This document shows, piece by piece, positions 9,079 through 60,584 of a stretch of DNA of 64,000 bases (position 1 is the stretch's first letter; every line of letters begins with the position of its first letter). The notes beneath the pieces were generated by a model, which saw nothing but the letters and a program-made list of their open reading frames with translations, was not told where the DNA came from and made no database searches. The translations under genes and the position numbers were made by a program. The DNA lies in assembly GCA_016933575.1 (NCBI GenBank), contig JAFGAR010000025.1, positions 52,888 to 116,887 on the forward strand, in the 5' to 3' direction. The DNA comes from Candidatus Thorarchaeota archaeon. Its GTDB lineage: Archaea > Asgardarchaeota > Thorarchaeia > Thorarchaeales > Thorarchaeaceae.

Positions 9079-9097
9079 GGGCATGTCATAAGATATC

Positions 9098-44960: not shown

Positions 44961-45096
44961 CTTGTTATTGCAAGTAAAGACGCTGTGTTCTAATATTCAG
45001 AAAATGTTTGAAAATCTCAGCGAGTGGTGGAATACTCTTGAAATCAGTCATGAAATCAGGTATATTAATTAATAGAGTGCTGAATAGAACTATTCG

Positions 45097-45450
45097 GTGT
45101 TTACAATGAGGAGCGCATTCAATGGCTTTTCATGTCTGGGTTTCATGTTTATCCTAGGAGGTAGCGTTCTTACCATTCCTGGGATTATGTTTAATGGGGA
45201 CATAATTGCTACATGGATTGGTGCAGGTGAGTTAGTAATCGGAATCATCCTAGTCATAGAGGAGGTCATATTTACAAGACGCTGGAATAGGATGGTTGGA
45301 ATAATCCGGAACCACAATGAAATTACACTCCAAGAAGCTGCTGCTAAGACTGGAACTACTCCTGATAAGGCGCGAAGCCTAATCTATGAGGCATTATCCT
45401 TAGGGGAATTATCTGGCAGATTTGATGGGGAAATCTATTCTCAATCATAG
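45097..45450 (+). CDS. 2-TM protein with C-terminal PCI-like winged helix
   Basis: Two TMs, then EITLQEAAAKTG..ARSLIYEALSLGELSGRFDG. Confidence 0.72.
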   Translation: MFTMRSAFNGFSCLGFMFILGGSVLTIPGIMFNGDIIATWIGAGELVIGIILVIEEVIFTRRWNRMVGIIRNHNEITLQEAAAKTGTTPDKARSLIYEALSLGELSGRFDGEIYSQS

Positions 45451-45690
45451 ATGCTTTCATGAAAGAACTTAACCACAGGGTATCGATGAATTTCTTACAG
45501 TCATCTGAAAGTATTGAGCCGCTCTGTTTTTTGACGTCGGAGAAGTTTCATCCATCTGAAAACATGAAAATAATTGTCACAATCTCTACTGGGTAAGCTA
45601 TAAGTAGTAGAATCTGAACGCCAACCCTAGGAAATCCAATTTGTTTCTGGTATCGGAACGAACTTGGATGAATGGATTCAGTGATATATT

Positions 45691-46968
45691 ATGAGTCGAA
45701 AAGTGTGCATCGCAGGTGGAAGCGCAACTCCCTTCGACTATCCCATGTATATAACGCCAGAGGCTATGGCTGCCAACTGTATTGTAGAAACGCAACACGA
45801 TATCCCTGACTTTACTCTCAGGGACCTTGATTTTATGGTATATTCGCATTTCTCAGTACACTTTGGTAAGCAGCTCTGTCCTGAATGGGTGATCCATGAT
45901 CACCTTGGGTTAGTCGGGTTACCCCACGTGCGTATTGAAAACGGAGGAAACACCGGAGGGTCAGCTCTCTATGGTGCATTCCTTGCAGTGAAGTCCGGTC
46001 TCTTTGACTGTGTTGGTGTCTATGGTTGGGAGACCATGGATAATGTCACGCAGTCCCAGGGTAGTGAGTTCATCGCCCTCGCTTCAGACACAAGGTACGA
46101 GGCTTTGGCTGGTGGAATCTATCCAATATACTATGCTGCAATGGCGTACAAGTTCATGAAAGAGAACGGTCTGACTGAGGAGGACTTTGCTCTTGCTGCC
46201 ATGAAGAACCGAAACTACGCAGCAGACAATCCAAAGGCGCAGTTCTACAGGAATGACTATACCAACCCGGAGTCGCCTTACTACAAGAAGACACTTACTG
46301 TCGATGATGTCATGGAGAGTCGTCTCATTAGCTATCCCCTCAAGAAGCTTGACTGTTGTCTGATGAGCCGAGGTGGTGCTTTTGCTCTCGTCACCAGCGA
46401 GGAGTGGGCCAAGAAGCACGCTCCTAATAATTACGTGGAAATTGCTGGTGCTGGTCTGAGTAGCTGTACCATTCGTGCAGGTGACCGTATTGACTTTCCT
46501 GGTTGGAACGAGCAGTATGGCAAGGGATATCCTGACATGACTGAGTTTGCAGCCTGCCGCAAGTCAGGTGAGGTTGCCTACGACATGGCTGGTATCGAGT
46601 ACAAGGATGCTGCCAAGAAGGTCGACGTTGCTGAGGTCCATGATGCCTTCAGCAGTTCGGAGACCCAGATCTACAAGGCGCTTCACTGGTGTACCACCGA
46701 GACCGTCAGGGACTTTGTCCGCGAGAAGCAGACCTTCATCGATGGTGCTGTACCAACCAATGTCGGTGGTGGGTTGATGGGCTACGGGCATCCTGTCGGG
46801 GCAACCGGTATCATGAGCGCTATCGAGTGCATGATGCATCTCAACGACACTGCTCCCAAGAAGCACTTGAGCTCCAAGACCTATGTCAAGGATGCGAACA
46901 CTGGTCTTGTCAACAGTCACGCAGGTACTGGAACCAGTATCTCGAACTTCATTCTCAGGAGGCCGTAG
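45691..46968 (+). CDS. Thiolase-like protein (SCP-x/archaeal type) lacking the N-terminal catalytic Cys
   Basis: KNRNYAADNPKAQ, PLKKLDCC, AEVHDAF and NVGGGLMGYGHPVGATG; ENGGNTG where CxSG is expected. Confidence 0.9.
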   Translation: MSRKVCIAGGSATPFDYPMYITPEAMAANCIVETQHDIPDFTLRDLDFMVYSHFSVHFGKQLCPEWVIHDHLGLVGLPHVRIENGGNTGGSALYGAFLAVKSGLFDCVGVYGWETMDNVTQSQGSEFIALASDTRYEALAGGIYPIYYAAMAYKFMKENGLTEEDFALAAMKNRNYAADNPKAQFYRNDYTNPESPYYKKTLTVDDVMESRLISYPLKKLDCCLMSRGGAFALVTSEEWAKKHAPNNYVEIAGAGLSSCTIRAGDRIDFPGWNEQYGKGYPDMTEFAACRKSGEVAYDMAGIEYKDAAKKVDVAEVHDAFSSSETQIYKALHWCTTETVRDFVREKQTFIDGAVPTNVGGGLMGYGHPVGATGIMSAIECMMHLNDTAPKKHLSSKTYVKDANTGLVNSHAGTGTSISNFILRRP

Positions 46969-46970
46969 AG

Positions 46971-47636
46971 ATGGTGGAGGATAAACGACTACACAAGATT
47001 CCAGGGCATAATGATGTCAAGTGGGATAATAGAAATGCTGACAAGTTCCGCGGTGATGTCAAGGAGACCGGTATTGGGTTCATGGGTTGGGATTATGATA
47101 CCGCTACTGAGCAGTTCAAGGTCTATCTGCATTATGACCAGCTCTATTACTGGAAGTACGCAGAGGTCTCGAAACTCGGTAAGGGCTTCGTTGACGGCGA
47201 GTTCTGGGGCACACAGTGTCCCAAGTGCGGCGATAAGTTCTTCCCACCGAGGGTGAATTGTTGGAACTTGAATTGCAATTTGGCTAGGTCGGTCTGGACC
47301 GAATTGCGTCAGGAAGGAGTCGTGCATACTTTTACAGTCGCTGGGTGGTCTGGAAAAAGCTCGCTGAAACGATTACCTTTCGTGCTTGCCTATGTCATTG
47401 TGGATGGTTGTAAGACTGCCATTGCAAATGAGCTTCGCGGATTAGATCCCTGGGATGCTGAGTTTGGCATGCCTGTCAAGGTCGTCTGGAAACCCAAGAA
47501 CGAGAGGCAAGGAACCGTGACTGACTGGCACTTCGAGCCAGCTGACGACTGGAAACCCGGACCGATGAATCCAGAGAAAGAGCGCATCAAAGAACTCTGT
47601 CAGCCGGTCATTGAATGGGTCAAGACTATGAAATAA
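46971..47636 (+). CDS. DUF35 family Zn-ribbon/OB-fold protein, partner of the thiolase
   Basis: CPKCGDKFFPPRVNC..C, GVVHTFT, PFVLAYV and GMPVKVVW; ATG 2 nt after the thiolase stop, with AGGAGG SD. Confidence 0.92.
   Translation: MVEDKRLHKIPGHNDVKWDNRNADKFRGDVKETGIGFMGWDYDTATEQFKVYLHYDQLYYWKYAEVSKLGKGFVDGEFWGTQCPKCGDKFFPPRVNCWNLNCNLARSVWTELRQEGVVHTFTVAGWSGKSSLKRLPFVLAYVIVDGCKTAIANELRGLDPWDAEFGMPVKVVWKPKNERQGTVTDWHFEPADDWKPGPMNPEKERIKELCQPVIEWVKTMK
47550..47636 (+). repeat. R0: intact 3' end of the DUF35 gene, template of the dispersed direct repeats
   Basis: Encodes WKPGPMNPEKERIKELCQPVIEWVKTMK*. Confidence 0.9.
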
Positions 47637-47640
47637 ACTA

Positions 47641-48297
47641 CTATTCGCAAGAGTTGGCTGCAAGTGCCAACTCCCCTCTTTCTCTGCATAGTGAAGGCAC
47701 ACTACTAGCGGACCAACGAGTCACTCTCTCTCCATATATTACAAAGAGTATCAGTACGATTATGGTCAAAAAACCTGCAGCTATGATAAGAGGAGCAATG
47801 GGGAAATCAGTTGTGGTGTATGTTGAGCCTTGTCTACATATTGAAATCTGATGCACGTTGGAGATGTTCCAGTTGTCTAGACTATCATTTGCAAAGAATT
47901 TGATATCCCAAATGACGACAAAGGATGGTTCATTCATGGTGTAATTAAGAGGCCAAGCTACAAAGTCATCAGGATCCCCTGTTGACATATCTCGTTTCAT
48001 AGTAATATTGTTCCACTTGCTACTCGAACTATTCTTGTAACTCCCGACAACAAAACTCACGCCATCTGGATCTGTCACTTCAACTCTAAGTTCTAGTGTC
48101 AAGTTGACTGGTCCAGAATTGGGAACTAGATCTACGAATTCCGGCATGAGTGTAAGGTCGAACGAAGGACCTGAGGATTGGCACACATGAAAGGTGGATA
48201 GCTGATTGCAATCAGCAGTTCCCCCAACGCTTGACTGTAGTGACACTATCACCAATATGATTAAGATAAACACACCACTACGGGTGAAAGTCTTCAT
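47641..48297 (-). CDS. Secreted Ig-like protein with C-terminal TM (cassette 1)
   Basis: Signal MKTFTRSGVFILIILVIV; VTDPDGV..W.NITM..FANDSLDNW; C-terminal TM. Confidence 0.72.
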   Translation of the reverse strand: MKTFTRSGVFILIILVIVSLQSSVGGTADCNQLSTFHVCQSSGPSFDLTLMPEFVDLVPNSGPVNLTLELRVEVTDPDGVSFVVGSYKNSSSSKWNNITMKRDMSTGDPDDFVAWPLNYTMNEPSFVVIWDIKFFANDSLDNWNISNVHQISICRQGSTYTTTDFPIAPLIIAAGFLTIIVLILFVIYGERVTRWSASSVPSLCRERGELALAANSCE

Positions 48298-48342
48298 GGA
48301 ACTCCCAAACATTCTAAGACTCGTTTTGGTAATAATCTTAAT

Positions 48343-48389
48343 GGAATTCATCCGACTATGTCTTCGAATGGGTCGAGATCATGAAGTAA
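48343..48389 (+). repeat. R1: decayed copy of the DUF35 3' end
   Basis: GAATGGGTCGAGATCATGAAGTAA matches R2 at 22/24; followed by a terminator-like hairpin. Confidence 0.8.
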
Positions 48390-48399
48390 TTTTGTATGA

Positions 48400-48444
48400 A
48401 AATGAGCTGGAGTTAATGGCTCCCCGCTCATTCTTCCTATTTTT
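48400..48444 (+). terminator. Hairpin plus T-rich tail following R1
   Basis: AATGAGC-t-GGAG-ttaatgg-CTCC-cc-GCTCATT, then CTTCCTATTTTT. Confidence 0.55.
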
Positions 48445-48455
48445 AAAATAATGAA

Positions 48456-50045
48456 TTAATGCTTCTTCCAGAAATACGGAAACCATACTAAAACAGTAGA
48501 GACTATTCCAACTACAATGAAAGTTGCAATCAAAATGGAGAGTGGATGCGCAAGGCTTGGTGAATAGAATGAATAACTCAATGCAAAATGAACTAAGAAT
48601 AGTAAGAACGCCAATACCAAATACCTATTCCCACCAACCCACGATATTGGTAGTCCTTTCTCGTGTGCATACTCCACTTCAAGAAAAAATGGATATACTA
48701 GAAATGCAAATGCTCCCAAAGACAATGAAATATTTGAAACAGCAAAATTCTGTGTGATTGCAATTAGAGATGGGCTCAAAATACCCGATAGAAACGCAAA
48801 TGTGGTCCACATAATTGGCTCGAGAATGAATGCTAATGAAAAAATAGTCCACCCTATCTGATTATTCTTAGTTGATGCTTTGGTGATTGATTGTGTGGCA
48901 ATTGATGATCCATATGCCATCAGAAAGCCACTGAATGACGCTAATATAACATGAACAAATCTACCCCAACCAAGCTGTAGAATTGTCATTCCAAATTCAG
49001 ATGTTGTCTGTAACCATGAACCTGCCACGTTTTCAGCCGTCATAGAATTAAAGATTCCAGTAATGTTTGCTGATGATTGAAATAGTTCAATCATTATATG
49101 AATTGGTGAAACAATATTAGCTAAGATAACACATAGAACTATGAGAACCAAGTATATTGGTACGGATATCTTCATAGAGGTTTCGTTAGCAATGAAAAGA
49201 ACTGTACATATTAGGATTGCAAACAAAAGCACAATGTAGGGGAAATAGATTGGATTTGTGAAATCTATAAATATTATTGAAAAACCTGTTACAAATCCAC
49301 ATGTAAATAGAGGAAGTGTGTAAGCTGCCACTTTTGGATTTGTAGATGCCTTTAAGAGATGAAGCCATAGTGCATCTTTAGTTTTGCTGGCTTTGGATGC
49401 AATCTCTTCAATTTTTCTTCTTCGCTTGATAATGATATCATATAGGACAACTAGTATTATCAAGTAGTTCAGCAGTGTTGTACCACCAAGGCCAAGAAAC
49501 ATTGTGAAAACGCTTAATCCAAAATAGACTGATGCAATGCCTCCTGTCGTGTGATTTGTCCCTTTGAGTAGTCGATTGTATTGCCAGAAAATTAACAAAA
49601 TAAATGATATAATAGCACCAATTGCCAGAAGGAGGGCGGACCAGCCAAGGATAATTGCTAGCATATCAACTGGGTGTGGACTAAATGCACTGAAAACATA
49701 GTCCCACCAAATTCTATGCCCCTCTGGATCTTGGGCATAAATTCCACCTTGTAGCACGAAATAGATATAGATGAATGTGAACCACATAAAATCTAAGAAT
49801 TGAGTAAGACTACTTTCTATTCCAAAAACTTTCTTTGGTATATTGAGTTTGATAATTGCTACACCAAACGCAATTGCATTAATAATTGCTGCATATTGGG
49901 GTAGACCAAACAATGCAAGTGTAAGTGGTATGAACATAAGGAGCGCAGCAACAATTTTAGCTAATGTCCTATTAGTCGATTTTTCATCTTCATCTAGAAT
50001 TGTAATTGTATCGACAATCGTATCGACAAATAGCTCTTTACTCAA
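48456..50045 (-). CDS. Orphan polytopic membrane protein (cassette 2)
   Basis: 529 aa, ~14 hydrophobic segments, AT-rich; no recognisable motif. Confidence 0.72.
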   Translation of the reverse strand: MSKELFVDTIVDTITILDEDEKSTNRTLAKIVAALLMFIPLTLALFGLPQYAAIINAIAFGVAIIKLNIPKKVFGIESSLTQFLDFMWFTFIYIYFVLQGGIYAQDPEGHRIWWDYVFSAFSPHPVDMLAIILGWSALLLAIGAIISFILLIFWQYNRLLKGTNHTTGGIASVYFGLSVFTMFLGLGGTTLLNYLIILVVLYDIIIKRRRKIEEIASKASKTKDALWLHLLKASTNPKVAAYTLPLFTCGFVTGFSIIFIDFTNPIYFPYIVLLFAILICTVLFIANETSMKISVPIYLVLIVLCVILANIVSPIHIMIELFQSSANITGIFNSMTAENVAGSWLQTTSEFGMTILQLGWGRFVHVILASFSGFLMAYGSSIATQSITKASTKNNQIGWTIFSLAFILEPIMWTTFAFLSGILSPSLIAITQNFAVSNISLSLGAFAFLVYPFFLEVEYAHEKGLPISWVGGNRYLVLAFLLFLVHFALSYSFYSPSLAHPLSILIATFIVVGIVSTVLVWFPYFWKKH

Positions 50046-50112
50046 CTACATTCCTCCTATATTCTCAAATGAAACTTACACTTGTTAATGAATTTTGGTA
50101 AAATCAGACAGT

Positions 50113-50199
50113 TGGAAACCTAGCCCAATGAACGAGGAGAAGGAGCGCATCAAAGAACTCTGTCAGCCTGTCATTGAATGGGTCAAGACCATGAAGTAA
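50113..50199 (+). repeat. R2: displaced copy of the last 29 codons of the DUF35 gene
   Basis: 75/87 nt identical to 47550-47636 without gaps; encodes WKPSPMNEEKERIKELCQPVIEWVKTMK*. Confidence 0.95.
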
Positions 50200-50297
50200 T
50201 CTTGAGACTTGAAAGAGATGGTGAACTCCAGCTCTCATTCATTTTTTTAGTTAATTTTCAATTGAATCACTAATTCTAGATTTCATTGAAATCTGGT

Positions 50298-52607
50298 TCA
50301 GGTATCACTTACCATACCCTGCGGAATAATTAGAGCTTCTCTTAGCTCAAGCCCCGTAGTTGTGAAATAACTTCTACCGGTGTAAGTTACTTTGGGATTA
50401 TCTCCGATCAATAGAACACGTAGAGGTAAGGAAAACTCAGCAATAATCAAATCGATGAGAGTGGAAAGAGTCTCACTGTCCTGTGCATCATCTGTGATTT
50501 GGGTATGCGTTTCTTCAAGAATACCCTTCTCTTTGTAGTAGAGGAATATTGTATAGATTGCTGTTAAGATGATATAGCCAATAAGACCAAGAAATATTAG
50601 CTTGAAGAAATCAGGGAATAATAAGCTTTGAAATGAGGAGAACAGCTGATACAGTAGTATCCAAACAATCGTTGTTATGACTAGTGCAATCCCCTCAAGT
50701 TTAGGATATGATGAACGTGTCTTCCATACTCTTTCGAACTCCTCTTTTGACCATGGTATCCTATGCTTGAATTTGACCATTACCACGCGAATGAATGTAT
50801 GCATGAACATTGATACCATTCCGAGCCTAAGGTATTCGACTGGAGCATTAGTATCAGTGATTGAACCAAAGGCAGTGCTACTATGTACTCTCTGGTCAAG
50901 ATGTGCAATGAGAAAAGTCAGTTGTTTCCGATTGAGTCCATAAAATCTTGTGGACTTTCGAGCCTTGAGGTATCTGCAACTTCCAACTAGGAAAAGAGGA
51001 AGCCCAATTATAAAACACCCAAGGGAGAATATATTCATGAAAGCTCCCATGGAAAACAATGCTGAGAAGAGAAAGTGAGTCATAACCCCTAAGAACAACA
51101 ACAATCCACCAATCGCTGCATATAGAATCGTTTCATATTGCTCTGTATACACTTCTCGTGCCCTGCTAGTTATTTTTCTAGCAAAGTCTTCGTGACCTCT
51201 CGCTTCGAGTAGTTGTTGCCAGTCTGGCGAAATCCTTGGAATTTCAATCGCTTTATACACAGATTCAGGTTGTGCTTTTTCAACGATAGATTCATCTGAG
51301 TAGTCTTGATCCTCCCTGAATCCAAGAAAGTTGAGACTTCGCTTAATTATCTCTTGGTCACCAAGTCGTCTAGCTAAGAGGAAACGGTCTCTTGTTGATA
51401 GAAACGCAGCTACAACAAATACAAAAATAGCGATTATACTCCACACCATTAGAATATCCACTACATCAATGAATTCCAGGCCTGCAATTGTAATTAGAAC
51501 TAAAAGACTGAGACTGAACATGAATCGCTCAATCCGTACTCTTTTTTGAAACTCATGTTCTGTAAGCAAGTACGAGTTGTACTGACTCACTCTAGGAGGA
51601 GCGTATCTCCCTTTCTCATACCTTGATGAATACTGGTAAACAAACAGACTGATCACTGGGAGTATGATTGCTGGCATCATGAGAAGAATCCCTTGAATGA
51701 TCTCGATACTGACAAGGACCACCAATGATATTGCAGAAAGTAGACCTATACTCAAGAATAGTGTAACTCCAATGTAGATCGATCTTGATAGATTACCAAA
51801 TCTACCCTGAGTGAATTGTAAAGTCTGCTTAGCAAACTGAATGTCATTGTTAGAAAAAGTCTTCTCCGAATTGAATTCAATATCCCTTCCAATAGCATCG
51901 AATATTCTCTTAGAATACGAGTTTGATTTGTAAATTGAATATAATGCATTGAGAGAATCCTCGTTCGAGTCTACAGATACACGTCTTCCAAGACCGACGA
52001 GAAGTTGTAGTGTTCGACCCGTTGACAGTGAACCAATCTTATCACTTGGCTCTTTTTCCTGATTACTGGTGTGGGTATATGTGGGAGCGCATTTTCCTAG
52101 GCAGAAAATGAATGCTATCATCATGATAAGATACCCAAACTGAATCGCAACAAAGTCTACAACAATATCAATAATGAAAGGTAAAGAAGGTTGAAGCCAA
52201 CCCGATAAATCCGCAAGCGTTAGTAATGACAGTATTCCAGATATCAAGAATACTGCTAGAGATACTCCCCATTTCTCATATATCCCTCTGACAATCATGT
52301 ATGCTATTATTCCTGAAAGTAGAATGGGTATTAGATCTGCAAGTGCCATAACCGAGATCATTACTAACTCCAAGAGTGGTATCGAACCTACAGTATATTC
52401 TATGACTATTCCTACAAGGATGATCGGAGCGGCAACTAAGAGATGGAAACCGAGAAGAACCAGTAGGCCGATAAGTTCTCCCTTCTTTGGATTCCTTCCC
52501 AACTTTAGATGCCCTCTCTTTCGTGCCTCATCTACCAGGTATGAAACTGTGAAAAAAAGACCGAACAGTAATGGAAACCATTGTACGAAAAGTTCACTGA
52601 TTGTCAA
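50298..52607 (-). CDS. Orphan polytopic membrane protein (cassette 3)
   Basis: 769 aa; repeated TM hairpins separated by soluble loops. Confidence 0.75.
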   Translation of the reverse strand: MTISELFVQWFPLLFGLFFTVSYLVDEARKRGHLKLGRNPKKGELIGLLVLLGFHLLVAAPIILVGIVIEYTVGSIPLLELVMISVMALADLIPILLSGIIAYMIVRGIYEKWGVSLAVFLISGILSLLTLADLSGWLQPSLPFIIDIVVDFVAIQFGYLIMMIAFIFCLGKCAPTYTHTSNQEKEPSDKIGSLSTGRTLQLLVGLGRRVSVDSNEDSLNALYSIYKSNSYSKRIFDAIGRDIEFNSEKTFSNNDIQFAKQTLQFTQGRFGNLSRSIYIGVTLFLSIGLLSAISLVVLVSIEIIQGILLMMPAIILPVISLFVYQYSSRYEKGRYAPPRVSQYNSYLLTEHEFQKRVRIERFMFSLSLLVLITIAGLEFIDVVDILMVWSIIAIFVFVVAAFLSTRDRFLLARRLGDQEIIKRSLNFLGFREDQDYSDESIVEKAQPESVYKAIEIPRISPDWQQLLEARGHEDFARKITSRAREVYTEQYETILYAAIGGLLLFLGVMTHFLFSALFSMGAFMNIFSLGCFIIGLPLFLVGSCRYLKARKSTRFYGLNRKQLTFLIAHLDQRVHSSTAFGSITDTNAPVEYLRLGMVSMFMHTFIRVVMVKFKHRIPWSKEEFERVWKTRSSYPKLEGIALVITTIVWILLYQLFSSFQSLLFPDFFKLIFLGLIGYIILTAIYTIFLYYKEKGILEETHTQITDDAQDSETLSTLIDLIIAEFSLPLRVLLIGDNPKVTYTGRSYFTTTGLELREALIIPQGMVSDT

Positions 52608-52764
52608 ATCTCAACCCTCTCCACATGATTTGATTACGTTAAGTGCAATATATCAACTTTCCTTATCAAAAATCAACAGAAATCACTTGTACTTTATTCT
52701 ATTGCAGTGTCATTGACTAGATGTTCAAATCATCTTATGGTTCAATACTCGGTTCGTTGGATCT

Positions 52765-52828
52765 GGAGAAGGAGGGCATGAAGGAACTCCATCAATTCGT
52801 GATTGACTGAGTCAAGACAATGAAATGA
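52765..52828 (+). repeat. R3: decayed copy of the DUF35 3' end
   Basis: 49/64 nt identical to R2 without gaps (EKEGMKELHQFVID*VKTMK*). Confidence 0.88.
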
Positions 52829-53026
52829 TTTTGAAACACTTTGAGTGGTCTTCTTCTTTTTATGTGAATCTGTATTAAATTCTTACAAAATCAGATTAAT
52901 TTCAAGATCTTCCTAACAAAACTATTCTCTGAATGCTTTACATACCATGAGCAAGATGAGGACACTGGAGCTATGAAGTACATCTTTATATCAATTGTTT
53001 TGAATAGTATTGTGAGGTTAAAAGAA

Positions 53027-53230
53027 GTGACCACTAGAACGATTCCAGTGTCAGAGGAGGTCTATAAACTACTGGAGAAATTAAGACTTCCTGGAGAGCG
53101 ATATGATGACACAATCCTTCGTCTCGCTGGGATCAAGGCACGTGGTAAAGACTTTGACAGAGCATTCAAAGAGGCACTTGATGCAGTTGTGAAAGAGGAT
53201 GCAGAGCTCCTTGAGAGACTTGCACAATAG
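53027..53230 (+). CDS. Antitoxin (archaeal VapB/DUF217-like RHH)
   Basis: TRTIPVSEEVYKLLEKLRLPGERYDDTILRL; tail EDAELLERLAQ typical of Doc-associated antidotes. Confidence 0.8.
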   Translation: MTTRTIPVSEEVYKLLEKLRLPGERYDDTILRLAGIKARGKDFDRAFKEALDAVVKEDAELLERLAQ

Positions 53231-53246
53231 AGTGTAATCTCTGGAG

Positions 53247-53639
53247 TTGTTTACATTGCGATACCTCACATTCGATGAGATTCTACAGATTCATAGAAGA
53301 ATGATAGAGGCGTTTGGTGGTGAAGATGAAATTCTCTCAGAAGAGGCTCTTGAGAATTGTGTTGCACTACCTATGATGGCCATCTTTGGAACAGAAACAA
53401 GTACATCATTGTGGTCAAAGGCAGCAACGCTTTTACATTGTATAGCTAACAGACATCCCTTCATTGATGGGAATAAGAGAACTGCTTGGACTGCAGCCAA
53501 AGTCTTCCTACTATTGAATGGATTTCGGTTGAGTGCATCTCCAGAAGATGGAGAGAGTAAGGTATTGGATGTCGTTAAAGGAGTTATCGATCTGGAAAAG
53601 CTCGCATATTGGATTGAGACCCATTCTGAATCGGTGTAG
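53247..53639 (+). CDS. Doc/Fic family toxin
   Basis: HPFIDGNKRTA motif. Confidence 0.92.
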   Translation: MFTLRYLTFDEILQIHRRMIEAFGGEDEILSEEALENCVALPMMAIFGTETSTSLWSKAATLLHCIANRHPFIDGNKRTAWTAAKVFLLLNGFRLSASPEDGESKVLDVVKGVIDLEKLAYWIETHSESV

Positions 53640-53695
53640 AAAATGAGAGTGAAATTCTCTAGTCATTTGAGGGAGCTTACCATTCACCAATAATA

Positions 53696-53717
53696 CTATA
53701 TGTAGATATACATATAG
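53696..53717. promoter_or_regulatory. Probable TA operator CTATATGTA-GATA-TACATATAG
   Basis: Perfect 9-bp arms, 18 nt upstream of the antitoxin start. Confidence 0.6.
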
Positions 53718-53735
53718 AATCCATGGGTAAGTTAC

Positions 53736-53948
53736 ATGGGTCAAAAGAATATACCTGTGGATTCTCATACGTATGAGATTCTGAAATCTCTCAAACGTCC
53801 AGGTGAGTCTTTTCGCGAACTCATTCTCCGTCTTATACAAGGTCAGGGAGATAGGGTCCTGCGGCATTTTGGTGCTTGGCAAATGGAACAGGATGAGCTT
53901 AATGCGATTCAAGACTCTTTAGAAAAGGGTTGGACTGGGTGGGATTGA
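53736..53948 (+). CDS. vapB: VapB-like antitoxin
   Basis: KNIPVDSHTYEILKSLKRPGESFRELILRL..FGAW; TGATG overlap with the toxin gene. Confidence 0.85.
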   Translation: MGQKNIPVDSHTYEILKSLKRPGESFRELILRLIQGQGDRVLRHFGAWQMEQDELNAIQDSLEKGWTGWD

Positions 53949-54355
53949 TGAAATCCATTTGCCTAGATACAACAATTCTCGTTGACTTGGAACGAGGAAT
54001 ACCCTCAGCGAAGGAGAAAATTGAGGCGATGTTATCAGAATCATATCGATTATCTACAACCACAATTAACCTCTTTGAGATGGCCTTTGGAGCTCATAAG
54101 TCCAAGATGAGTAAAAAAAATCTCAAAGATCTACTTACACTTTCAGAAGATCTTGATGTCTGGAACTTCGATATTTCCAGTAGTTTTCTAGCAGGTGAAT
54201 TACTACACAAGCTTGAATTGAAAGGAACTCCCATCGGATTCAGGGATGTCTTCATTGCATCGATTGCTCTTACAAATAGATGCGACAAGATTGTGACCTC
54301 TAATGTGAAAGACTTTTCACGCATTCCTGGAATCTCAGCAGTAGAATACGATTAA
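53948..54355 (+). CDS. vapC: VapC PIN-domain ribonuclease toxin
   Basis: LDTTILVD, NLFEMAFG, RDVFIASIAL and VTSNVKDFSRI motifs. Confidence 0.92.
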   Translation: MKSICLDTTILVDLERGIPSAKEKIEAMLSESYRLSTTTINLFEMAFGAHKSKMSKKNLKDLLTLSEDLDVWNFDISSSFLAGELLHKLELKGTPIGFRDVFIASIALTNRCDKIVTSNVKDFSRIPGISAVEYD

Positions 54356-54521
54356 GACTAGGAAGACCATAGATATCGTAATCACCTTCAAGGAATTCTC
54401 TATGAATATTTTCATTTGTTACTCTCAATAAATGAAACAATTGAAGTGAGAGAGAGAGTATGCAAAGGTATAAACTGGAAGGAATGCTTTAGAATGCGAT
54501 TAATAGTGGGAGATATCTAAG

Positions 54522-54947
54522 ATGCCTAAACTGCCTGAGACACGTAAAAAACGTTACATGCAGAAGATACACCATGGTCGGCATAGAATCGCACTTGTTG
54601 AAGAATGGCAGATGGAAAAGGTATCGGACTATGATATAAAGAATCTACTGGCAATAGAGAAGGCCGCTCAAGAATCGATTGAAGTAGCCACAGACTTGAT
54701 TGCGATGATTCTAAAAGATACATCAATCCCACCGACTGATGATTATACTAATATCTCGAGGCTTCTAGAACAGGGTCTTATCACAGAAGAAATTGGGAAG
54801 ATCATGAGAAACGCCAATGGCCTCAGGAATCGTCTTATTCATGTGTATAACGATATAGAGATCGAAGTGCTTCTACAGAGCATCAAACGAGTGCTTCCCG
54901 GAATAACCAAATTTTTGGATGTGGTAGAAAAATGGTTGAGCAAGTGA
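54522..54947 (+). CDS. HEPN (DUF86/HepT-like) RNase toxin
   Basis: GLRNRLIHVY fits the RX4HXY motif. Confidence 0.88.
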   Translation: MPKLPETRKKRYMQKIHHGRHRIALVEEWQMEKVSDYDIKNLLAIEKAAQESIEVATDLIAMILKDTSIPPTDDYTNISRLLEQGLITEEIGKIMRNANGLRNRLIHVYNDIEIEVLLQSIKRVLPGITKFLDVVEKWLSK

Positions 54948-55372
54948 TTTCTAGCATTAAAAGTGAACTTGATTGGATGCAAGAGATAGATCAAGTTGAT
55001 GCAATCCTTCTTTTTGGCTCTCAAATTGAAGGTACTGCCACAGATAGAAGCGATTACGATATCTGTGTTGTAGCTTCGACTCTACAATCTGAGGATGAGC
55101 AGGCAGCACTACTCGGCAAGATCTGGGGGCAAATAAATGCAGACAAGTTTGATGTCTGGCTTTTCGAAGAGCTACCCTTATACCTCCAAATGGCTGTTAT
55201 CGAAAACCACGAGATACTTTTTTGTGCTGATATTCCAGAACTCTTCGAATATTTCTATCAATTTAGAAAAGAGTGGAGTACACAGGCGCACAGGCAGTCT
55301 CTGACTTTTGAATTTGGTATAGATCCAATGAAGCTGAAGGAGATCTGGAAAACAGAACCCAAATCCATCTGA
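54932..55372 (+). CDS. Minimal nucleotidyltransferase (MNT/MntA-like antitoxin)
   Basis: LLFGSQIEGTATDRSDYDICV fits GSX10DXD; FEELPLY. Confidence 0.88.
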   Translation: MVEQVISSIKSELDWMQEIDQVDAILLFGSQIEGTATDRSDYDICVVASTLQSEDEQAALLGKIWGQINADKFDVWLFEELPLYLQMAVIENHEILFCADIPELFEYFYQFRKEWSTQAHRQSLTFEFGIDPMKLKEIWKTEPKSI

Positions 55373-55408
55373 ACCTACTCCTATTCGAAAAAACATGCCC
55401 AAAAAGTT

Positions 55409-55433
55409 TTGAACGAGTCAAGACCATGAAGTA
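55409..55433 (+). repeat. R4: short copy of the DUF35 3' end
   Basis: TTGAACGAGTCAAGACCATGAAGTA matches R2 at 23/25. Confidence 0.8.
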
Positions 55434-55550
55434 CTTGTTATAATAGAGGACCCTTGCTGATTTGATTGAACATGCTATCTGAAATCCATTCGTACAAAGT
55501 GAACGCAATTGTCAAGTACTTGTTCGGTCAGTAGTCGCATGGTTATAGAT

Positions 55551-56051
55551 ATGTGCACAATTTCCAAGATTCTGCTAGATATGATAGATCATGAGGGTCG
55601 TCAAACTAGATTTGTCATGACAGCTGCTACAGGTTCTGATCTTAATTTCAAACCCTCAGATGGGATGCGTTCTTTGTTCGATGTGATGAATCATTTGGCT
55701 GAGATTCCAACAATTGACCTACAATTCTGCTCAATGCAATTCAATAACTTTGAAGAAGTCCATGCAATGGAAAAGGAGCTTCGCAGGAACACGATTGATG
55801 AACTGCTTGCACTCTATGACGAAGGGATGGAGGCTATTCATGAATTCATCTCAAAACTCTCTGATGACCAACTTACGGAGAACAGTCTGAAGCCATTCGA
55901 TTTAGAAGGGCCACCAAGGAGTTGGGCTCATTATATCCCGGAGATCACGACTCATCTAGCAATGCACAAAATGCAGTTATGGATGTACCTGAGACTTGCT
56001 GGTGCTCCTGTAAATATGCGGACATACTATGGAGTTCGCCAGAACGATTGA
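55551..56051 (+). CDS. DinB/YfiT-like protein
   Basis: FKPSDGMRSLFDVMNHL..THLAMHKMQLWMYLRL; alternative start at 55539. Confidence 0.85.
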   Translation: MCTISKILLDMIDHEGRQTRFVMTAATGSDLNFKPSDGMRSLFDVMNHLAEIPTIDLQFCSMQFNNFEEVHAMEKELRRNTIDELLALYDEGMEAIHEFISKLSDDQLTENSLKPFDLEGPPRSWAHYIPEITTHLAMHKMQLWMYLRLAGAPVNMRTYYGVRQND

Positions 56052-56117
56052 ACTCTTCAGGTTCTGCCATACTGGGAACTTTTATTGAACGCCTCACCTG
56101 AAATAATATTCTGCTTA

Positions 56118-56170
56118 GCATGAAGGAACTCTCCAACCATGTCTTCCAATCAGTCATGAGTATGAACTAG
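56118..56170 (+). repeat. R5: heavily decayed copy of the DUF35 3' end
   Basis: 36/53 nt identical to R2 without gaps, stop codon in register (MKELSNHVFQSVMSMN*). Confidence 0.7.
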
Positions 56171-56428
56171 ACTCTCAACAAAGGAGCTGGATTTTGATAT
56201 CTGAGATGAATTGATCAAGACCAACAGTGTGGGAAGAAGATCTCTAAAATGCCTTAGTTTTAGCCATTTCGCCAAAAATAGCATTGAATGAACGCGTTTT
56301 AACGACGGGAAACTCCAATCTAGCAAAGAGATTATTGTTTCTAGCTCGGCGTTCTTGAGAATATTGATTATTTCACTGCTTCGATTTCAATTCATGTGAC
56401 CTTACTGATTAGGAAGTAGAGTAATCAA

Positions 56429-57186
56429 ATGAAAGAACTGAGAGTCAAAGGCTCATACCACAACATGGGTCTTCAATTTGGAAAGTCACTCTCATCTTTG
56501 CAAGGAATCAGGACTGGATAAAATCAGATGTGGAGGCACTGCATGTCATCCATGCAGAACCTGAAAACGGTCAGAGGAGTGTGGGATTTAGCTTCGGTGA
56601 TAATGGAAGATATGGTGGACAGAATAAAGAAGGTCTAACTATTGCGAGCGCCTATGTCGGGATGTACGCTGGACAATACCCGAAACCTGGAATCAGGATG
56701 AACATATCTTCAAGATGGGCACTGGACAACTTCGCTACTACTGAGGAGACTGTTGACTATCTCTTGAAGATACCTCATACTGAACCTGTGAACTTTCTTG
56801 TCGCTGACGGTATGGGTACCATTGCAAGGGTCGAAACATGTCCAGAGAAGACAGCAGCTAGATATCTGGAGAGCGGATTAGAGGTTGTAACTGTCTTCTA
56901 TGTAATTGATGAGATGAAACATTTAGATCGACCTTGGCCCGAAGATTTTCTCTTCTATGAATACGATAAAAGGGTGAAGAAGTGGTTCGAGGAAAACAGA
57001 GGCAATATCACTGTGGAAAAGGTCAAGGCTCTGTGCAGAGACCCGGAGAATGGCATCTGCGAGTATTATGGCAATCCTGGTGATAGTGATGAGATAACAA
57101 TCTGGTCATGGGTTGCAGAAACAAGTCCTGCAAGAATACAGATTTCACCAGGTCCCCCATGCCATACAGACTACAAGAAATTGTAA
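56429..57186 (+). pseudogene. C45 (acyl-CoA:6-APA acyltransferase-like Ntn) peptidase with internal deletion and frameshift
   Basis: ATG 56429 gives MKELRVKGSYHNMGLQFGKSL. Another frame then reads LIFARNQDW..GQNKEGL..NFLVAD..GPPC. The segment carrying the nucleophile Cys is absent. Confidence 0.75.
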
Positions 57187-57277
57187 ACCATATCGTGTTG
57201 TGAGCAGAGTGCTATAAAATTGCACGCAACTTCTGGCATGAAATCTGAAACGCATCAACTCAGATTTCGTTTTGACA

Positions 57278-58063
57278 CTATTTCTTTCCGAAGAAATACA
57301 TCACAGATGCTGCAGATGAACCTGTGACTTTCACTCTCTCCTTGATTGATTCTCCCACTTGCCTTAATTCATCATAAGAGGGATGATCAATTATTCGAGC
57401 TAGATCTGCATCAATATCCTTGATTACGTAATCGACATTCTCCTTTCTATGTGGGTCTTCACAATCAGGTGCCTCTTTACAGAATAGGCATTTGACACCC
57501 CATGAGGACTCGTAGACCTCTACAGCACTCAGACCCACCTTGTTGACTGCGTCTCTCAATTCCTGACGAGATAAGGCCTCAAAATGAGGGATGCCTAAGA
57601 TGGTATCGATCTTCACATTCAGATTATGTTTATCCCTGTCCACTCGCTGCGCCTGAGTCTGTTCTCCATCAGAATACAATTCTTGTATGATGAAACTGCC
57701 TCCGGGTTTCAACACTCGATACATCTCAGCTAGTACAGTGTCAATATTCTCTAGGTGATGGATTGAGTATGAGATACACACTGTATTAAAATGATTGTCC
57801 GGAAATGACATCGTTTCAGCATTCATCTCCATCAAATCCACTGGAGCATCTTTGAACTTCTCTTTTGCTTTCTTCAAGTCACCTGCTAAGATGTCTATTC
57901 CTACGAATGATTTGTACTCTCTCAGAGTTTTCATCAAGGTGGTGATGAAGTCGCCATCCTGTGTGCCTACATCGAGGATAACTCCGCCAGAGATAGTTCC
58001 GAGTTTCTCTCTGACTTTGATTGCACCAGATTCTCTAAGTCCATCAGGTAGATCTGCGATCAA
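57278..58063 (-). CDS. Class I SAM-dependent methyltransferase
   Basis: ILDVGTQDG, VGIDI, FPDNHFN, SIHHL and EMYRVLKPGG motifs. Confidence 0.9.
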   Translation of the reverse strand: MIADLPDGLRESGAIKVREKLGTISGGVILDVGTQDGDFITTLMKTLREYKSFVGIDILAGDLKKAKEKFKDAPVDLMEMNAETMSFPDNHFNTVCISYSIHHLENIDTVLAEMYRVLKPGGSFIIQELYSDGEQTQAQRVDRDKHNLNVKIDTILGIPHFEALSRQELRDAVNKVGLSAVEVYESSWGVKCLFCKEAPDCEDPHRKENVDYVIKDIDADLARIIDHPSYDELRQVGESIKERVKVTGSSAASVMYFFGKK

Positions 58064-58280
58064 CTCAGGTTGCCTCGAGAGATTCTGGTTTCTTCTTTGA
58101 CTTCAATCCTTCGAACAACGTAAACCGCCATAGAATAGGTCACGATCAAGATGTAATATCAGGAATACGTACGATGAGATAATGAACAAACTTCTGAACT
58201 TAGCTTCGGATATCGGAAAACAGCGATACGCCAAATGTATATGTGAGGAAAGTACGTACGCTGAATATCATTCAGAAAGT

Positions 58281-59312
58281 ATGGTGTGGTTAGAATTGAA
58301 GATCTGTGCAAAGTGTGGCCTTTCAAATGATGTGATGCGGAAGTATTGCAGACGCTGCGGAGCACCGCTCATAAAGACAGAAGAAGAACCAGTACCGGAA
58401 CCAATTCAGGAACTGGAAGAAGAACCAATTACTCCAACACCCAGTGTTTCAGATGATGAACCGCTCGTGCGTCCAAGTACTGTGGCATCCTCATATGAGG
58501 AAGAACCACTTGTTCGCCCAAGTGCAGTTGTTTCTGAACAGGATGTGGTGGCGGCTGTAGAACCTGAACCCCCTGTTGTGGTTGAGGAACCTCTTAGCTT
58601 TGAAGAACCAAGTGAAGAAGTGACTACGGAAGAAGTAACCGAGAGCACTAGTATGGAATATGAACGAGGTAGGGAAGTTGTGGCAGACATCCTAGAGAAG
58701 GTCAAAGCTGCAGAGGCTCGTCAACGAGCTGAAATGGAAACAGAATCACCAGTGCCTGATATTGAACCACCTCCACCAGAACCTCTAGAGATTGTGGAAC
58801 CGCTTGCATATGATGAACCAGAGCCTGAGATTGCGATAGAAGAGCAAGCTATTGTGGAGGAACCAGAACCAAGAGAAGATCTCATTACCATTGAGGCTCC
58901 TTCTGTAGCATCACCACCAAGACCCACTCTTGAAGATGAGATCTCAACTGACGGCAAGATACGATCTTTTGAATCGGATATTAACGCTAGCAAACTTGAA
59001 CTTCAACAGCTCCGGTCCGAGTTTGATACTTTGCGTTCACATCTCGATGAAGAGGTTGAGCGATACCACACTGTTGCTGAGGCAAAACGAATTCGTGCTG
59101 AGAGTATCGAGCGAGACTTGGACCTCGCCAAGAAGGAGTACAACGATGCCAATAAAGAGTACAAGAATGTGGAGAATCGCAGAAAGAAGGAACTATCTGA
59201 TGCTGAGAAGCGTATTAATGATGCAGAGAAACGAATGAGGAAAGCAGAAGAATCAAAGGAGAAGCGCATTCAGGACATCGAGAAGGAAATACGAAAACGA
59301 GAGGAAGGTTAG
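58281..59312 (+). CDS. Zn-ribbon, Pro/Glu-rich linker and long charged coiled-coil protein
   Basis: CAKCG..YCRRCGAPL; duplicated EPLVRPS; ~115-aa E/K/R heptad tail. Confidence 0.78.
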   Translation: MVWLELKICAKCGLSNDVMRKYCRRCGAPLIKTEEEPVPEPIQELEEEPITPTPSVSDDEPLVRPSTVASSYEEEPLVRPSAVVSEQDVVAAVEPEPPVVVEEPLSFEEPSEEVTTEEVTESTSMEYERGREVVADILEKVKAAEARQRAEMETESPVPDIEPPPPEPLEIVEPLAYDEPEPEIAIEEQAIVEEPEPREDLITIEAPSVASPPRPTLEDEISTDGKIRSFESDINASKLELQQLRSEFDTLRSHLDEEVERYHTVAEAKRIRAESIERDLDLAKKEYNDANKEYKNVENRRKKELSDAEKRINDAEKRMRKAEESKEKRIQDIEKEIRKREEG

Positions 59313-59490
59313 AGCATTACACAATAGCCGAATCTAAGACCTTTATTGCATCTCAGCTCAATCAATGTACCATTATAGTGATATAATAATCATGAATACA
59401 AGAATTAGTAAGATATCGATTTAGCCGATTTCTGATATTCTATAAGGATAGTTGTTTAATTATAATAATCCTAAATTTGAGGACTGTCTT

Positions 59491-59844: not shown

Positions 59845-59863
59845 TCTGACTGTGTTAGCGATT

Positions 59864-60460: not shown

Positions 60461-60502
60461 AGCTCTCTCGACCTCGAATAGATGAGATCTTTAATAGTTG
60501 CT

Positions 60503-60553: not shown

Positions 60554-60584
60554 TATGTTTTATTTGTGATGAGGTGATAATGCC

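Follow-up and report, generated by a model that had tools for sequence, protein, structure and literature searches.

Gene cassettes punctuated by copies of a host gene's 3' end form a hypervariable island in a Thorarchaeota genus

Results

Anchor Operon and Repeat Copies

The window, the whole 64,000-nt stretch of Candidatus Thorarchaeota DNA analysed here, holds a thiolase-DUF35 housekeeping operon and a convergent TetR gene, and accessory units accumulate between DUF35 and TetR. Synteny of the thiolase gene is kept in all relatives. Orthologues of DUF35 share 82–90% identity in 13 genomes of the genus, and the protein matches named Thorarchaeota/Promethearchaeota proteins. TetR is also the far flank in G013 and G005.

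45691–46968, + strand: thiolase-fold gene, Cys-less (IENGGNTGG), first in the anchor operon (Pfam Thiolase_C_1/Thiolase_N; translation)
46971–47636, + strand: DUF35 / ChsH2-type Zn-ribbon OB-fold gene, 221 aa, the anchor (Pfam OB_ChsH2_C, zf-ChsH2)
59864–60460, − strand: TetR regulator running convergently to DUF35; it is the hot spot's conserved distal flank (Pfam TetR_N)

The original prediction described six copies of the 3' end of DUF35 in this region. A repeat-family search and a profile search recovered all six in place on the + strand, together with a seventh (R6) that had been missed and that forms part of a methyltransferase cassette. The seven co-oriented copies, R0 included, span 47550–58156.

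47550–47636, + strand: R0, the last 29 codons of DUF35, with a conserved 24-nt core at 47613–47636
47651–47673, + strand: R0 hairpin, GAGTTGGC / GCCAACTC, a compensatory variant of the family stem (fold −16.5 kcal/mol, z −2.4)
48359–48389, + strand: R1, short relic tail, about 31 nt of it gene-like (repeat and profile search)
50113–50199, + strand: R2, long relic tail, 86% to R0, open frame, two residue changes
52742–52828, + strand: R3, decayed long relic tail, 70% to R0, one in-frame stop
55407–55434, + strand: R4, core-only relic tail without hairpin
56118–56170, + strand: R5, decayed relic tail with only the 5' half of the hairpin stem left
58124–58156, + strand: R6, core-only tail closing the methyltransferase cassette

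Profile E-values ranged from 5e-13 to 3.5e-4. One repeat family in the window had seven copies, and a second paired 50113–50202 (86% to R0) with 52742–52831 (70% to R0). The 20-mer GAATGGGTCAAGACNATGAA, allowing up to three mismatches, occurred 5 times against 0.01 expected by chance. Across the whole 3.47-Mb assembly, copies of the DUF35 tail are confined to the array; the repeat is therefore not MITE-like.

The anatomy of the repeat differs in several respects from that first described. It had been said to end at the stop codon, but it continues through a variable spacer of about 10–15 nt into a hairpin (stem base GAGCTGG/CCAGCTC) and a CT/T-rich tract, and the hairpin covaries among copies. 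The repeat unit is the tail plus terminator hairpin plus T-tract, and not the codons alone. Hairpins had been noted behind R1 and R2, with R0 thought to abut its cargo directly; however, R0 has its own hairpin with compensatory stem changes, followed by a CT-rich tract to about 47686, and the earlier reading arose because a minus-strand ORF reads through it. R0 is the same in kind as the other copies. R1, described as 47 nt, is gene-like over only its listed length; its hairpin lies at 48404–48429 (fold z −3.8), with a T-tract to about 48445. R2 is followed by an imperfect hairpin (50215–50234) and a T-tract to about 50248 and shows the two residue differences from R0 that had been predicted, while R3 has kept its T-tract and lost its hairpin. 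The array, placed by the prediction as ending at 57186, runs on for about 2.7 kb to about 59860, up to TetR.

Cassette Cargo

Between the tails lie the following genes and cassettes.

47641–48351, − strand: cassette 1 cargo, orphan ORF, 236 aa as called
48456–50045, − strand: cassette 2 cargo, orphan ORF, 529 aa
50298–52607, − strand: cassette 3 cargo, orphan ORF, 769 aa
52973–55372, + strand: three toxin-antitoxin (TA) pairs (Pfam)
55509–56051, + strand: DinB-family cassette (Pfam DinB_2)
56530–57186, + strand: AAT-family gene, acyl-CoA:6-APA acyltransferase-like (Pfam AAT)
57218–58156, − strand: methyltransferase cassette, gene at 57278–58063, ending in R6 (Pfam Methyltransf_11)
58182–59312, + strand: 376-aa Zn-ribbon / coiled-coil protein, here within the array (weak Pfam matches only)
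59452–59844, + strand: pterin-4a-carbinolamine dehydratase, the last cargo gene (Pfam Pterin_4a)

The three large orphan ORFs of cassettes 1–3 gave no match in the Pfam search, so Pfam did not confirm the Ig-like protein of the original prediction. The predicted TA pairs and DinB gene were confirmed by Pfam, the pairs being VapB-like/Doc(Fic) at 52973–53639, VapB/VapC(PIN) at 53736–54355 and HepT/MNT at 54522–55372. No recognisable tail was read in the intergenic sequence between these three pairs; HepT/MNT forms a separate cassette directly behind a tail in G024 and G007.

Much of this cargo recurs in related arrays. Homology of cassette 1 to relatives covers 47690–48385, and the cassette with its tail is the eighth unit in G001 and is also present in G012, L057, L066 and L082. 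The DinB cassette has a 90% identical copy at another position in the G001 array. The methyltransferase cassette is found in G001 (two copies), G014, G009, G041, G006 and L054; its cargo-tail junction is identical in three of the relatives' copies, and it adjoins DUF35 tails in five relatives. Homologues of the 376-aa protein lie in or beside the arrays of at least seven genomes, and beyond TetR in G013 and G005. The pterin-4a-carbinolamine dehydratase of G017 lies within its array, behind a tail.

Distribution Across the Genus

A search for R0 in sister genomes, which the original prediction had proposed as a check, found the tail motif in 23 of 28 genomes of the genus, mostly as co-oriented multi-copy arrays, and on 29 metagenome contigs. 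Cargo behind the DUF35 orthologues proved variable and bounded by the same repeats. In G008 the site is empty: the DUF35 tail and hairpin are followed directly by TetR. Elsewhere, sites between the same flanks (thiolase-DUF35 and TetR) are occupied by 1–11 tails with differing cargo. The proposal of a gene-capture hot spot anchored at the DUF35 3' end is borne out by these patterns, and we found neither a scattered repeat, nor fixed syntenic cargo, nor an assembly artefact, the three outcomes that had been named as counting against it. With conserved flanks, variable cassettes, an empty site and partial repeats of the anchor gene 3' of the inserted cassettes, the DUF35–TetR interval is a genus-wide additive, hypervariable island.

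About 50 array loci contained 122 relic tails and 21 functional DUF35 genes. Units had a median length of 1378 nt (minimum 0.44 kb), and their cargo fell into 143 clusters, with 130 ORFs in the same orientation as DUF35 and 98 in the opposite one. The same cassettes recur among genomes at other positions and beside other neighbours, and duplicated cassettes were seen within single arrays. The 97%-complete G001 carries an array of 11 tails, in which the first unit (9 kb) encodes a HerA/FtsK-type ATPase and an HNH-NUMOD3 nuclease (618 aa). A heliorhodopsin is among the array cargo of one relative. A second array with a different repeat unit was observed in the genome to which the window belongs.

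Relic Tails and Junctions

R2 had been predicted to be a once-functional gene end, and the open DUF35 frames of the relic tails, their conservative and synonymous differences and their matches to alleles of other lineages show this for the relic tails in general. Many are nearer to other genomes' functional tails than to the host's own (0.84–0.87 vs 0.62–0.69 in G001; 0.86 vs 0.68 in G024). From the open frames and this likeness it follows that the tails diverged as parts of working genes; the displaced copies are former working 3' ends of DUF35. The types of gene-end allele mostly agree with the tree of the upstream gene, and there is thus no clear sign that the working end has often been replaced.

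The left ends of relic tails, at the right-hand junctions, are variable and near-continuous (18, 20, 21, 23, 25, 27, 28, 29, 31 ... 409 nt) with no fixed point, although there is an excess at 26–31 nt, where the core alone forms the commonest relic class. Between G009 and L059, which share a 96–98% background, an extra cassette has its left bound inside the core, and homology resumes only at the T-tract, with the spacer and hairpin linked to neither neighbour; this implies at least two junction classes. Ends of homology form two classes, one near 0 and the other near +50. Of the recent exchanges, the best resolved is that between G018 and G019 (97.8% over 1984 nt), where both junctions lie within the same 10 nt or so around GTCAAGAC; other junctions map to −19..+3. 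Within the core, synonymous sites of GAA, GTC and AAG are nearly invariant among 12 functional genes, a weak signal from three sites.

Recombinase Search

The lack of a recombinase in cis, as predicted, extended to the array ORFs and array contigs searched. The 739 ORFs from about 50 array loci included neither a tyrosine recombinase nor an IntI-type integron integrase, and these loci with their 122 relic tails yielded no integrase or integrase fragment. Among the 28 genus genomes, PF00589 was detected in 9 (absent from 19), PF00239 in 9 and rve in 3, never on array contigs; the one PF00589 match in G000 lies on a 1.4-kb contig. Viral and metagenome scans gave no attP-bearing element.

Discussion

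Proposed Homology-Driven Displacement and Its Rivals

The original prediction offered two mechanisms, homology-anchored recombination and a trans-acting recombinase, and the evidence leans to the former. Our tentative preference, and the likeliest of the readings considered, is that no dedicated recombinase is involved and that the arrays arise by homology-driven displacement and shuffling; how the DNA recombines, in which direction events ran and by what route DNA was transferred are given here as we infer them. The punctuation is a portable homology box, made of the last 18–400 nt of DUF35, the stop codon, the spacer, the terminator hairpin and the T-tract. Donor DNA would come from related cells and carry a DUF35 end with its trailing genes. 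On the left it would recombine within the conserved thiolase-DUF35 genes, and on the right it would join a variable point in the 3' end of the resident gene (homology-facilitated illegitimate joining) or a point within an existing relic box. The incoming piece would supply a working gene end and shift the resident end downstream as a truncated relic. Where several boxes are present, homologous recombination and gene conversion between the best-conserved blocks (the 24-nt core, the stem base and the T-tract) could add, delete, duplicate and reorder units of 0.5–3 kb within and between lineages. Selection may have kept the hairpin and T-tract, probably as a two-way terminator that insulates the units. 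Given that they are not co-oriented, the cassettes are probably expressed from their own promoters.

The displaced gene ends fit the serial capture that had been proposed, but insertion at the gene end is not the whole of array growth; at the repeats, cassettes have also changed order, been duplicated and been lost. Homology-driven displacement is supported by relics that are former working gene ends, by their variable left ends, by the two junction classes and by the lack of recombinases. A general pathway is a simpler account of a second array with another repeat unit than many specific enzymes would be. Several points count against homology-driven displacement. In the organisms studied, homologous exchange works poorly on 20–90 nt at 75–90% identity, illegitimate recombination facilitated by homology is an infrequent event, and we know of nothing on recombination or DNA uptake in Thorarchaeota. 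The agreement of gene-end alleles with the upstream gene tree and, weakly, the near-invariant synonymous sites of the core also speak against it. The model has no account of how unrelated genes first enter a unit, the prevalence of core-only tails weighs against it, and the G018/G019 junctions lie as a site-specific crossover would leave them.

These last two observations are what a site-specific exchange of cassettes would explain, by a recombinase encoded elsewhere (on a virus, plasmid or rare element) or belonging to an unrecognised family. Crossover would take place at the 24-nt core, with short arms ATGG/CCAT around GTCAAGA, with units leaving as circles and inserting again at any core, in the manner of CALIN cassettes or cis-mobilisable elements. 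The remaining junctions near the core and its reduced synonymous variation fit such a reading, and it is clear from CALINs that arrays lacking an integrase can be served in trans (PMC9668308). The core is also the minimal part kept in every detected unit, albeit partly as an effect of ascertainment; its inverted arms, at just 4 bp, speak against the reading. We consider this reading possible but rather unlikely: the searches turned up no candidate enzyme, with each of the tyrosine, serine and rve recombinases absent from at least 19 of 28 genomes, including G001, and from every array contig, and no attP-bearing element came to light. Against it, too, stand the second junction class, at the T-tract and with a hairpin module linked to neither neighbour, and the cassette tails, whose likeness to once-functional gene ends crossover at the core would not yield. 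A broader version, which we hold to be unlikely, is a dedicated cassette-exchange machinery in Thorarchaeota that uses a host gene end and terminator hairpin as its recombination site (here the 24-nt core around GTCAAGA and the GAGCTGG/CCAGCTC hairpin, with different units used at different anchors). Such a machinery would amount to a functional counterpart of the integron that relies on an unrelated enzyme and serves several chromosomal platforms per genome.

Classical tandem accretion, in which the units are remnants of elements that had their own integrase and a DUF35-mimicking attP and later lost the integrase, seems improbable to us. Co-oriented direct repeats of the target 3' end bound each unit, and such repeats with older copies farther away are the textbook footprint of tycheposons, Alteromonas tRNA islands and Dehalococcoides ssrA islands; within the window, copies are more decayed the farther they lie from the gene, and the first G001 unit has mobile-element-like genes. 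Yet about 50 loci hold no integrase, integrase fragment or intact relative at the site, the units are too small for an integrase plus cargo, the same small units recur intact in different contexts, and repeat lengths vary continuously instead of taking a single value for each element family. The HNH-NUMOD3 protein in the gene-proximal unit of G001 could instead point to homing, in which naive alleles would be cut at the DUF35 end by a free-standing nuclease and then repaired from the occupied allele, as happens with mobile ORFs that duplicate the C-terminus of mitochondrial genes. This is the least probable reading, and a very improbable one: the nuclease is not recurrent among the cargo clusters, most arrays lack such a gene, and repair would co-convert flanks rather than place junctions in the core and T-tract.

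Comparison With Known Systems

The locus may be said to behave like an integron or a tRNA island built on another principle. As an analogy, the "integron-like" label of the original prediction stands; as an assignment it fails on the lack of IntI, of an attC-like site and of co-oriented cassettes. The repeat hairpin is 20–35 nt long without RYYYAAC/GTTRRRY boxes, whereas attC sites are imperfect palindromes of 55–140 nt with R''/L''-L'/R' boxes. Integrase-less attC clusters (CALINs) have been reported in Asgard MAGs (PMC9668308). As in integrons and CALINs, cassettes of one to three genes are each closed by a structured repeat, their order varies and TA cassettes are common. Unlike them, the DUF35 repeat derives from a host gene end, and the cassettes face both ways, so that no single promoter drives them. 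Integron and CALIN cassettes are co-oriented and mostly promoterless.

Additive flexible genomic islands of marine Alteromonas bacteria, anchored mostly at tRNA or tmRNA genes (PMC4898812), share a fixed hot spot between conserved genes, small cassettes whose numbers and kinds differ even between close relatives, a partial direct repeat of the anchor gene downstream of the cassettes, and near-identical cassettes in diverged backgrounds. The present anchor differs in being a protein-gene 3' end with a terminator hairpin, in an Asgard archaeon, with up to 11 relic copies per array and recombinases absent from most genomes. Tycheposons of Prochlorococcus tRNA islands carry a tyrosine recombinase and usually a replication module (bioRxiv 10.1101/2020.12.28.424599). 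Their islands resemble the DUF35 array in repeated insertion at one gene 3' end, older units pushed inward, partial target copies and a cargo of niche and defence genes; in the DUF35 arrays, however, the 739 ORFs gave neither of those modules, units are much smaller and the length of the repeat varies.

Tandem accretion and cis-mobilisable elements (CIMEs) are described at protein-gene or ssrA 3' ends (PMC5704250; Dehalococcoides ssrA islands, PMC3146451), likewise as tandem integrase-less units bounded by att-like gene 3'-end repeats and mobilisable in trans in principle. Those units are found beside intact elements that bear an integrase at the same site, and their att core is defined, while no helper was found for the DUF35 array and its junctions do not appear to be confined to one position. 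A published model with the same logic as our favoured reading concerns T6SS effector-immunity clusters of Vibrio cholerae and rhs C-terminal displacement, for which homology-facilitated illegitimate and ordinary recombination were proposed, with no integrase (PMC5361080). There too, the upstream part of the gene serves as homology anchor, a new 3' end arrives, and old ends with their neighbours are shifted as orphans. In those arrays the displaced 3' end is a variable, selected toxin domain and the cargo an immunity gene, whereas the DUF35 end is conserved and merely restored, and its cargo is unrelated to the anchor.

Implications

The locus is a repeatedly used entry point for accessory genes throughout the genus, apparently integrase-free and in genomes mostly without tyrosine, serine and DDE recombinases. 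Across arrays, the cargo includes TA pairs, surface proteins, DinB and methyltransferases. The sequence signature of the locus is searchable in metagenomes, and the arrays account for breaks of MAG contigs at the DUF35 locus in these organisms and offer natural markers for strain-level population studies. If the process is purely homology-driven, conserved gene ends and terminators can act as portable recombination handles and assemble integron-like arrays where there is no integron; should a hidden enzyme be responsible, it would be a new kind of cassette recombinase.

A Repeated DUF35 Gene End

The original prediction held that the terminal codons of the DUF35 gene (its own 3' end, R0, at 47550-47636) recur downstream as co-oriented direct repeats. 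Repeat and profile searches recovered every reported copy, as well as one that had been missed. The anchor genes (assigned with Pfam), the relic copies or "tails" (R1-R6, numbered by distance) and the far flank are as follows.

45691-46968, + strand: thiolase-fold gene, directly upstream of DUF35
46971-47636, + strand: DUF35/ChsH2-type gene, 221 aa
48359-48389, + strand: R1 tail copy
50113-50199, + strand: R2 tail copy
52742-52828, + strand: R3 tail copy
55407-55434, + strand: R4 tail copy
56118-56170, + strand: R5 tail copy
58124-58156, + strand: R6 tail copy, newly added here
59864-60460, - strand: TetR gene, convergent with DUF35

All seven copies were found by the profile search (E-values 5e-13 to 3.5e-4), and the 20-mer core GAATGGGTCAAGACNATGAA occurred five times with up to three mismatches, against 0.01 expected from shuffles. 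Throughout the 3.47-Mb assembly that holds the window (G000, 215 contigs; the window is positions 52888-116887 of contig C140), tail copies were confined to this array, which rules out a MITE-like spread. A likeness of the core to the tRNA T-arm was rejected as too loose to use. DUF35 orthologues came from sources with the taxon names Thorarchaeota or Promethearchaeota. The repeated 29-residue C-terminal tail (47550-47636, residues 193-221) extends past the OB-fold domain and is peculiar to the Thor clade; alignments with DUF35 homologues of Hel-, Hod- and Lokiarchaeia cover only 87% of the protein and exclude the tail. The thiolase partner (45691-46968) lacks the nucleophilic cysteine (IENGGNTGG) and keeps HDAF and GHPVGATG; its activity may be aldolase-like or non-thiolytic.

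The repeat had been described as ending at the stop codon. Alignment of the window copies with those of relatives revealed that the unit runs on through a variable spacer of 10-15 nt, a hairpin and a CT/T-rich tract, which we term, together with the tail and stop codon, the box. The base of the hairpin stem is GAGCTGG/CCAGCTC, and the inner stem is variable yet complementary. Across 66 copies, 94% of cells in the five basal pairs were paired, and the basal stem showed 16 double-sided changes compared to 4.1 in shuffles, with none of 500 shuffles as high. The commonest stem variant, GAGTTGG/CCAACTC (12 of the 66 copies), is also that of R0, whose hairpin lies at 47651-47673. R0 thus does not abut its cargo directly, as was first proposed; it seemed to do so because a minus-strand ORF reads through the hairpin. 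The terminator-like hairpins reported after R1 and R2 are indeed present, while those of R3-R6 are wholly or partly lost; among 122 relic tails, 103 have kept theirs. Genome-wide, the strict hairpin was detected at just three positions, so it is a feature of this locus and no general type of terminator. Rfam gave no match in the region 45000-61000.

Extent of the Array and Its Distribution in the Genus

A related genome, G008, has an empty site: behind the DUF35 stop codon come the spacer and the hairpin before, 48 nt on, the 3' end of a convergent TetR gene is reached. In the window this TetR gene marks the far flank, as it does in two other genomes (G013 and G005). Given this common flank, the window array spans 47637 to approximately 59860, where TetR begins, rather than ending at 57186 as initially delimited. 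These limits take in an AAT-like gene, for which the other DUF35 arrays examined yielded no homologue, and three genes that other genomes carry within or next to such arrays: those for a methyltransferase, a 376-aa Zn-ribbon protein and a pterin dehydratase. The 376-aa protein (58182-59312), which has an N-terminal zinc ribbon and a coiled-coil but no clear family, occurs within or beside the array in at least seven genomes. Among public reads, only the probable source sample holds this locus, as Logan contigs; these are interrupted between 46230 and 54671, with both flanks at ~12x coverage. Strain heterogeneity at the array could produce this pattern, which is no evidence for it and bears neither way on excision or empty junctions.

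The core motif (up to two mismatches) was present in 23 of the 28 genomes of the genus, with control counts of 0-1. Most of these genomes carry several co-oriented copies on one contig; G001 has 11 tails over more than 30 kb. Another 29 genuine array contigs came from a metagenome scan, with as many as 9 tails in 12.8 kb; the other 12 of the 41 matches were chance hits in high-GC bacterial genes encoding E-W-V-K-T-M. Over 42 non-redundant loci with 112 tails, the median tail spacing was 1378 nt (interquartile range 865-1942, minimum 436). A less closely related Thorarchaeota genome (72% identity in DUF35, 1.55-Mb contig) has one tail, whose hairpin differs, and lacks an array; two of its loci were identical and so offered no polymorphism.

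The cargo amounted to 280 ORFs in 143 clusters, of which 130 and 98 were oriented with and against DUF35, respectively. Its kinds (Pfam over the 143 representatives, the 25 commonest of 157 families) include toxin-antitoxin pairs, methyltransferases, GNAT acetyltransferases, DinB and TetR, as well as TPR, NosD and PKD surface proteins. As the original prediction anticipated, relatives combine the same repeats with different cargo, in shuffled positions and beside other neighbors. The first cassette of the window is the eighth in G001, and the DinB of the window has a counterpart of 90% identity in another unit of that genome. HepT/MNT lies directly 3' of a tail in two genomes (G024 and G007). 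The methyltransferase unit appears in at least six further genomes, twice in G001, and its cargo-tail junction is common to three of the relatives' copies. Genome-wide scatter, fixed syntenic cargo and an assembly artefact, the three alternatives to the original prediction, therefore all fail. An ordinary chromosomal gene can also turn up as a cassette: heliorhodopsin is a DUF35-array cassette in G001 (L021:5216-6040) and lies at an unrelated locus in G000 (C45:5140-6096), with 80% nucleotide identity and homology restricted to the gene and 60-80 nt on either side.

Relic Tails and Junctions

Relic tails of sufficient length, among the 122, keep the DUF35 reading frame, and their differences are conservative and synonymous. 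They match allele types of working genes (e.g., ...CQPVIEW... and ...CAPVYEW...), and many are nearer to another genome's working tail than to their host's own. They thus diverged as parts of functional genes, in line with what had been claimed for R2. The left ends of relic tails vary almost without gaps between 18 and 409 nt, and lengths of 26-31 nt, the core alone, are overrepresented. Gene-end alleles are largely congruent with the tree of the upstream gene and so do not clearly prove that gene ends were replaced; a single mosaic tail turned up, in array locus L088.

Two genomes, G018 and G019, have one cassette in common (97.8% identity over 1984 nt) between unrelated flanks, and on both sides the switch falls within ~10 nt around GTCAAGAC in the core. 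In other genome pairs the right-hand switch lies between -19 and +3, a placement blurred by spacer indels, which confound ungapped change-point mapping. Genome G009 and array locus L059 differ by one cassette, with 96-98% identity to either side of it. The left junction of this difference lies in the core, but beyond the cassette homology returns no earlier than the T-tract, and the module of spacer and hairpin differs and goes with neither neighbor. Among orthologous loci, homology stops in one of two places, close to the stop codon or ~50 nt past it. Junctions both in the core and at the T-tract point to several of the box's conserved blocks as sites of exchange, instead of a single nucleotide.

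Search for a Recombinase

No recombinase had been visible in the sequence, and our searches agree. Pfam detected none in the window array or in the larger ORFs of three further arrays (G001, G005 and G042), and jackhmmer seeded with the genus's own tyrosine recombinases found none of this type in 739 ORFs (≥80 aa) from all array loci. For serine, DDE or novel recombinases encoded by single-copy cargo, the negative extends to the 25 commonest of 157 Pfam families. Across the 28 genomes, PF00589 occurs in 9, PF00239 in 9 and rve in 3, generally on short contigs and in no case on an array contig. G001, which is 97% complete and has the longest array, is without any tyrosine recombinase. Viral and metagenome scans with the core yielded no episome bearing the core and none bearing an attP; the single viral match lies inside an unrelated coding region and is compatible with chance. 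ORFs of ~615 aa beside tails in four genomes were considered and rejected as recombinases: three are HExxH surface-protease-like cargo, and the fourth, in G001, is ~20% identical to these and has no Pfam match. A 9-kb gene-proximal unit of G001 (L022:8560-13499, G001:C10) encodes two large proteins, a HerA/FtsK-like ATPase of 1028 aa and a protein of 618 aa that combines an HNH domain with seven NUMOD3 motifs; the unit may be a defence or mobile-element module. Altogether, 19 of the 28 genomes, one of them 97% complete, have no Pfam-detectable tyrosine recombinase; unless MAG incompleteness accounts for this absence, they would be without a XerA-type chromosome-resolution enzyme, an unusual condition among archaea.

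Mechanism of Capture

We tentatively favor a recombinase-independent, homology-driven route. DNA imported from relatives would be anchored in the conserved thiolase-DUF35 genes and would supply a working gene end together with its downstream neighbors. The right end of the import would join the resident 3' end at a variable point, or inside an existing relic box, so that the old gene end would be displaced downstream. Homologous recombination and gene conversion between boxes could then reshuffle, duplicate and delete units. Such a route would account for once-functional foreign tails with continuous left ends, for multiple junction classes and duplicated units, for the lack of recombinases, and for a second array with a different repeat in the same genome. 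That array, outside the window (G000:C139:~800-11200), holds eight co-oriented copies of a unit of ~70 nt, which has a hairpin of its own and ends in a T-rich stretch; the copies lie 0.9-3.5 kb apart, and smaller repeat families lie on contigs C38, C214, C152 and C155 of the same genome.

Several observations sit uneasily with homology-driven exchange. Junctions and tail lengths cluster at the core, synonymous variation is reduced there, short and diverged homology would have to suffice, and gene-end alleles largely follow the upstream tree. A serious, if less likely, rival is a site-specific enzyme that works in trans on the core. Classical accretion of integrase-bearing elements fits poorly and seems improbable, the locus lacking what defines integrase-borne elements. 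Homing endonucleases are a poor fit of still lower probability; the one nuclease-like gene, that for the HNH-NUMOD3 protein of G001, does not recur among the cargo clusters.

The homology route corresponds to the displacement model proposed for T6SS/rhs arrays (PMC5361080). The locus shows the former working gene ends and variable right-hand junctions expected of sequential displacement, and the features of an additive flexible genomic island (PMC4898812). It also behaves like tycheposon/tRNA islands, and like cis-mobilisable elements and ssrA islands. Integron cassette arrays, mostly integrase-less clusters, have been reported in Asgard MAGs (PMC9668308). Of the integron-like platform originally proposed, the array resemblance and the capture hot spot stand, but the locus has no IntI, no attC and mixed cargo orientation and is thus not an integron. 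Our literature search turned up no account of arrays of this kind in Asgard archaea. The locus is a real, lineage-wide gene-capture hot spot, and the evidence on its mechanism leans toward homology-driven exchange.
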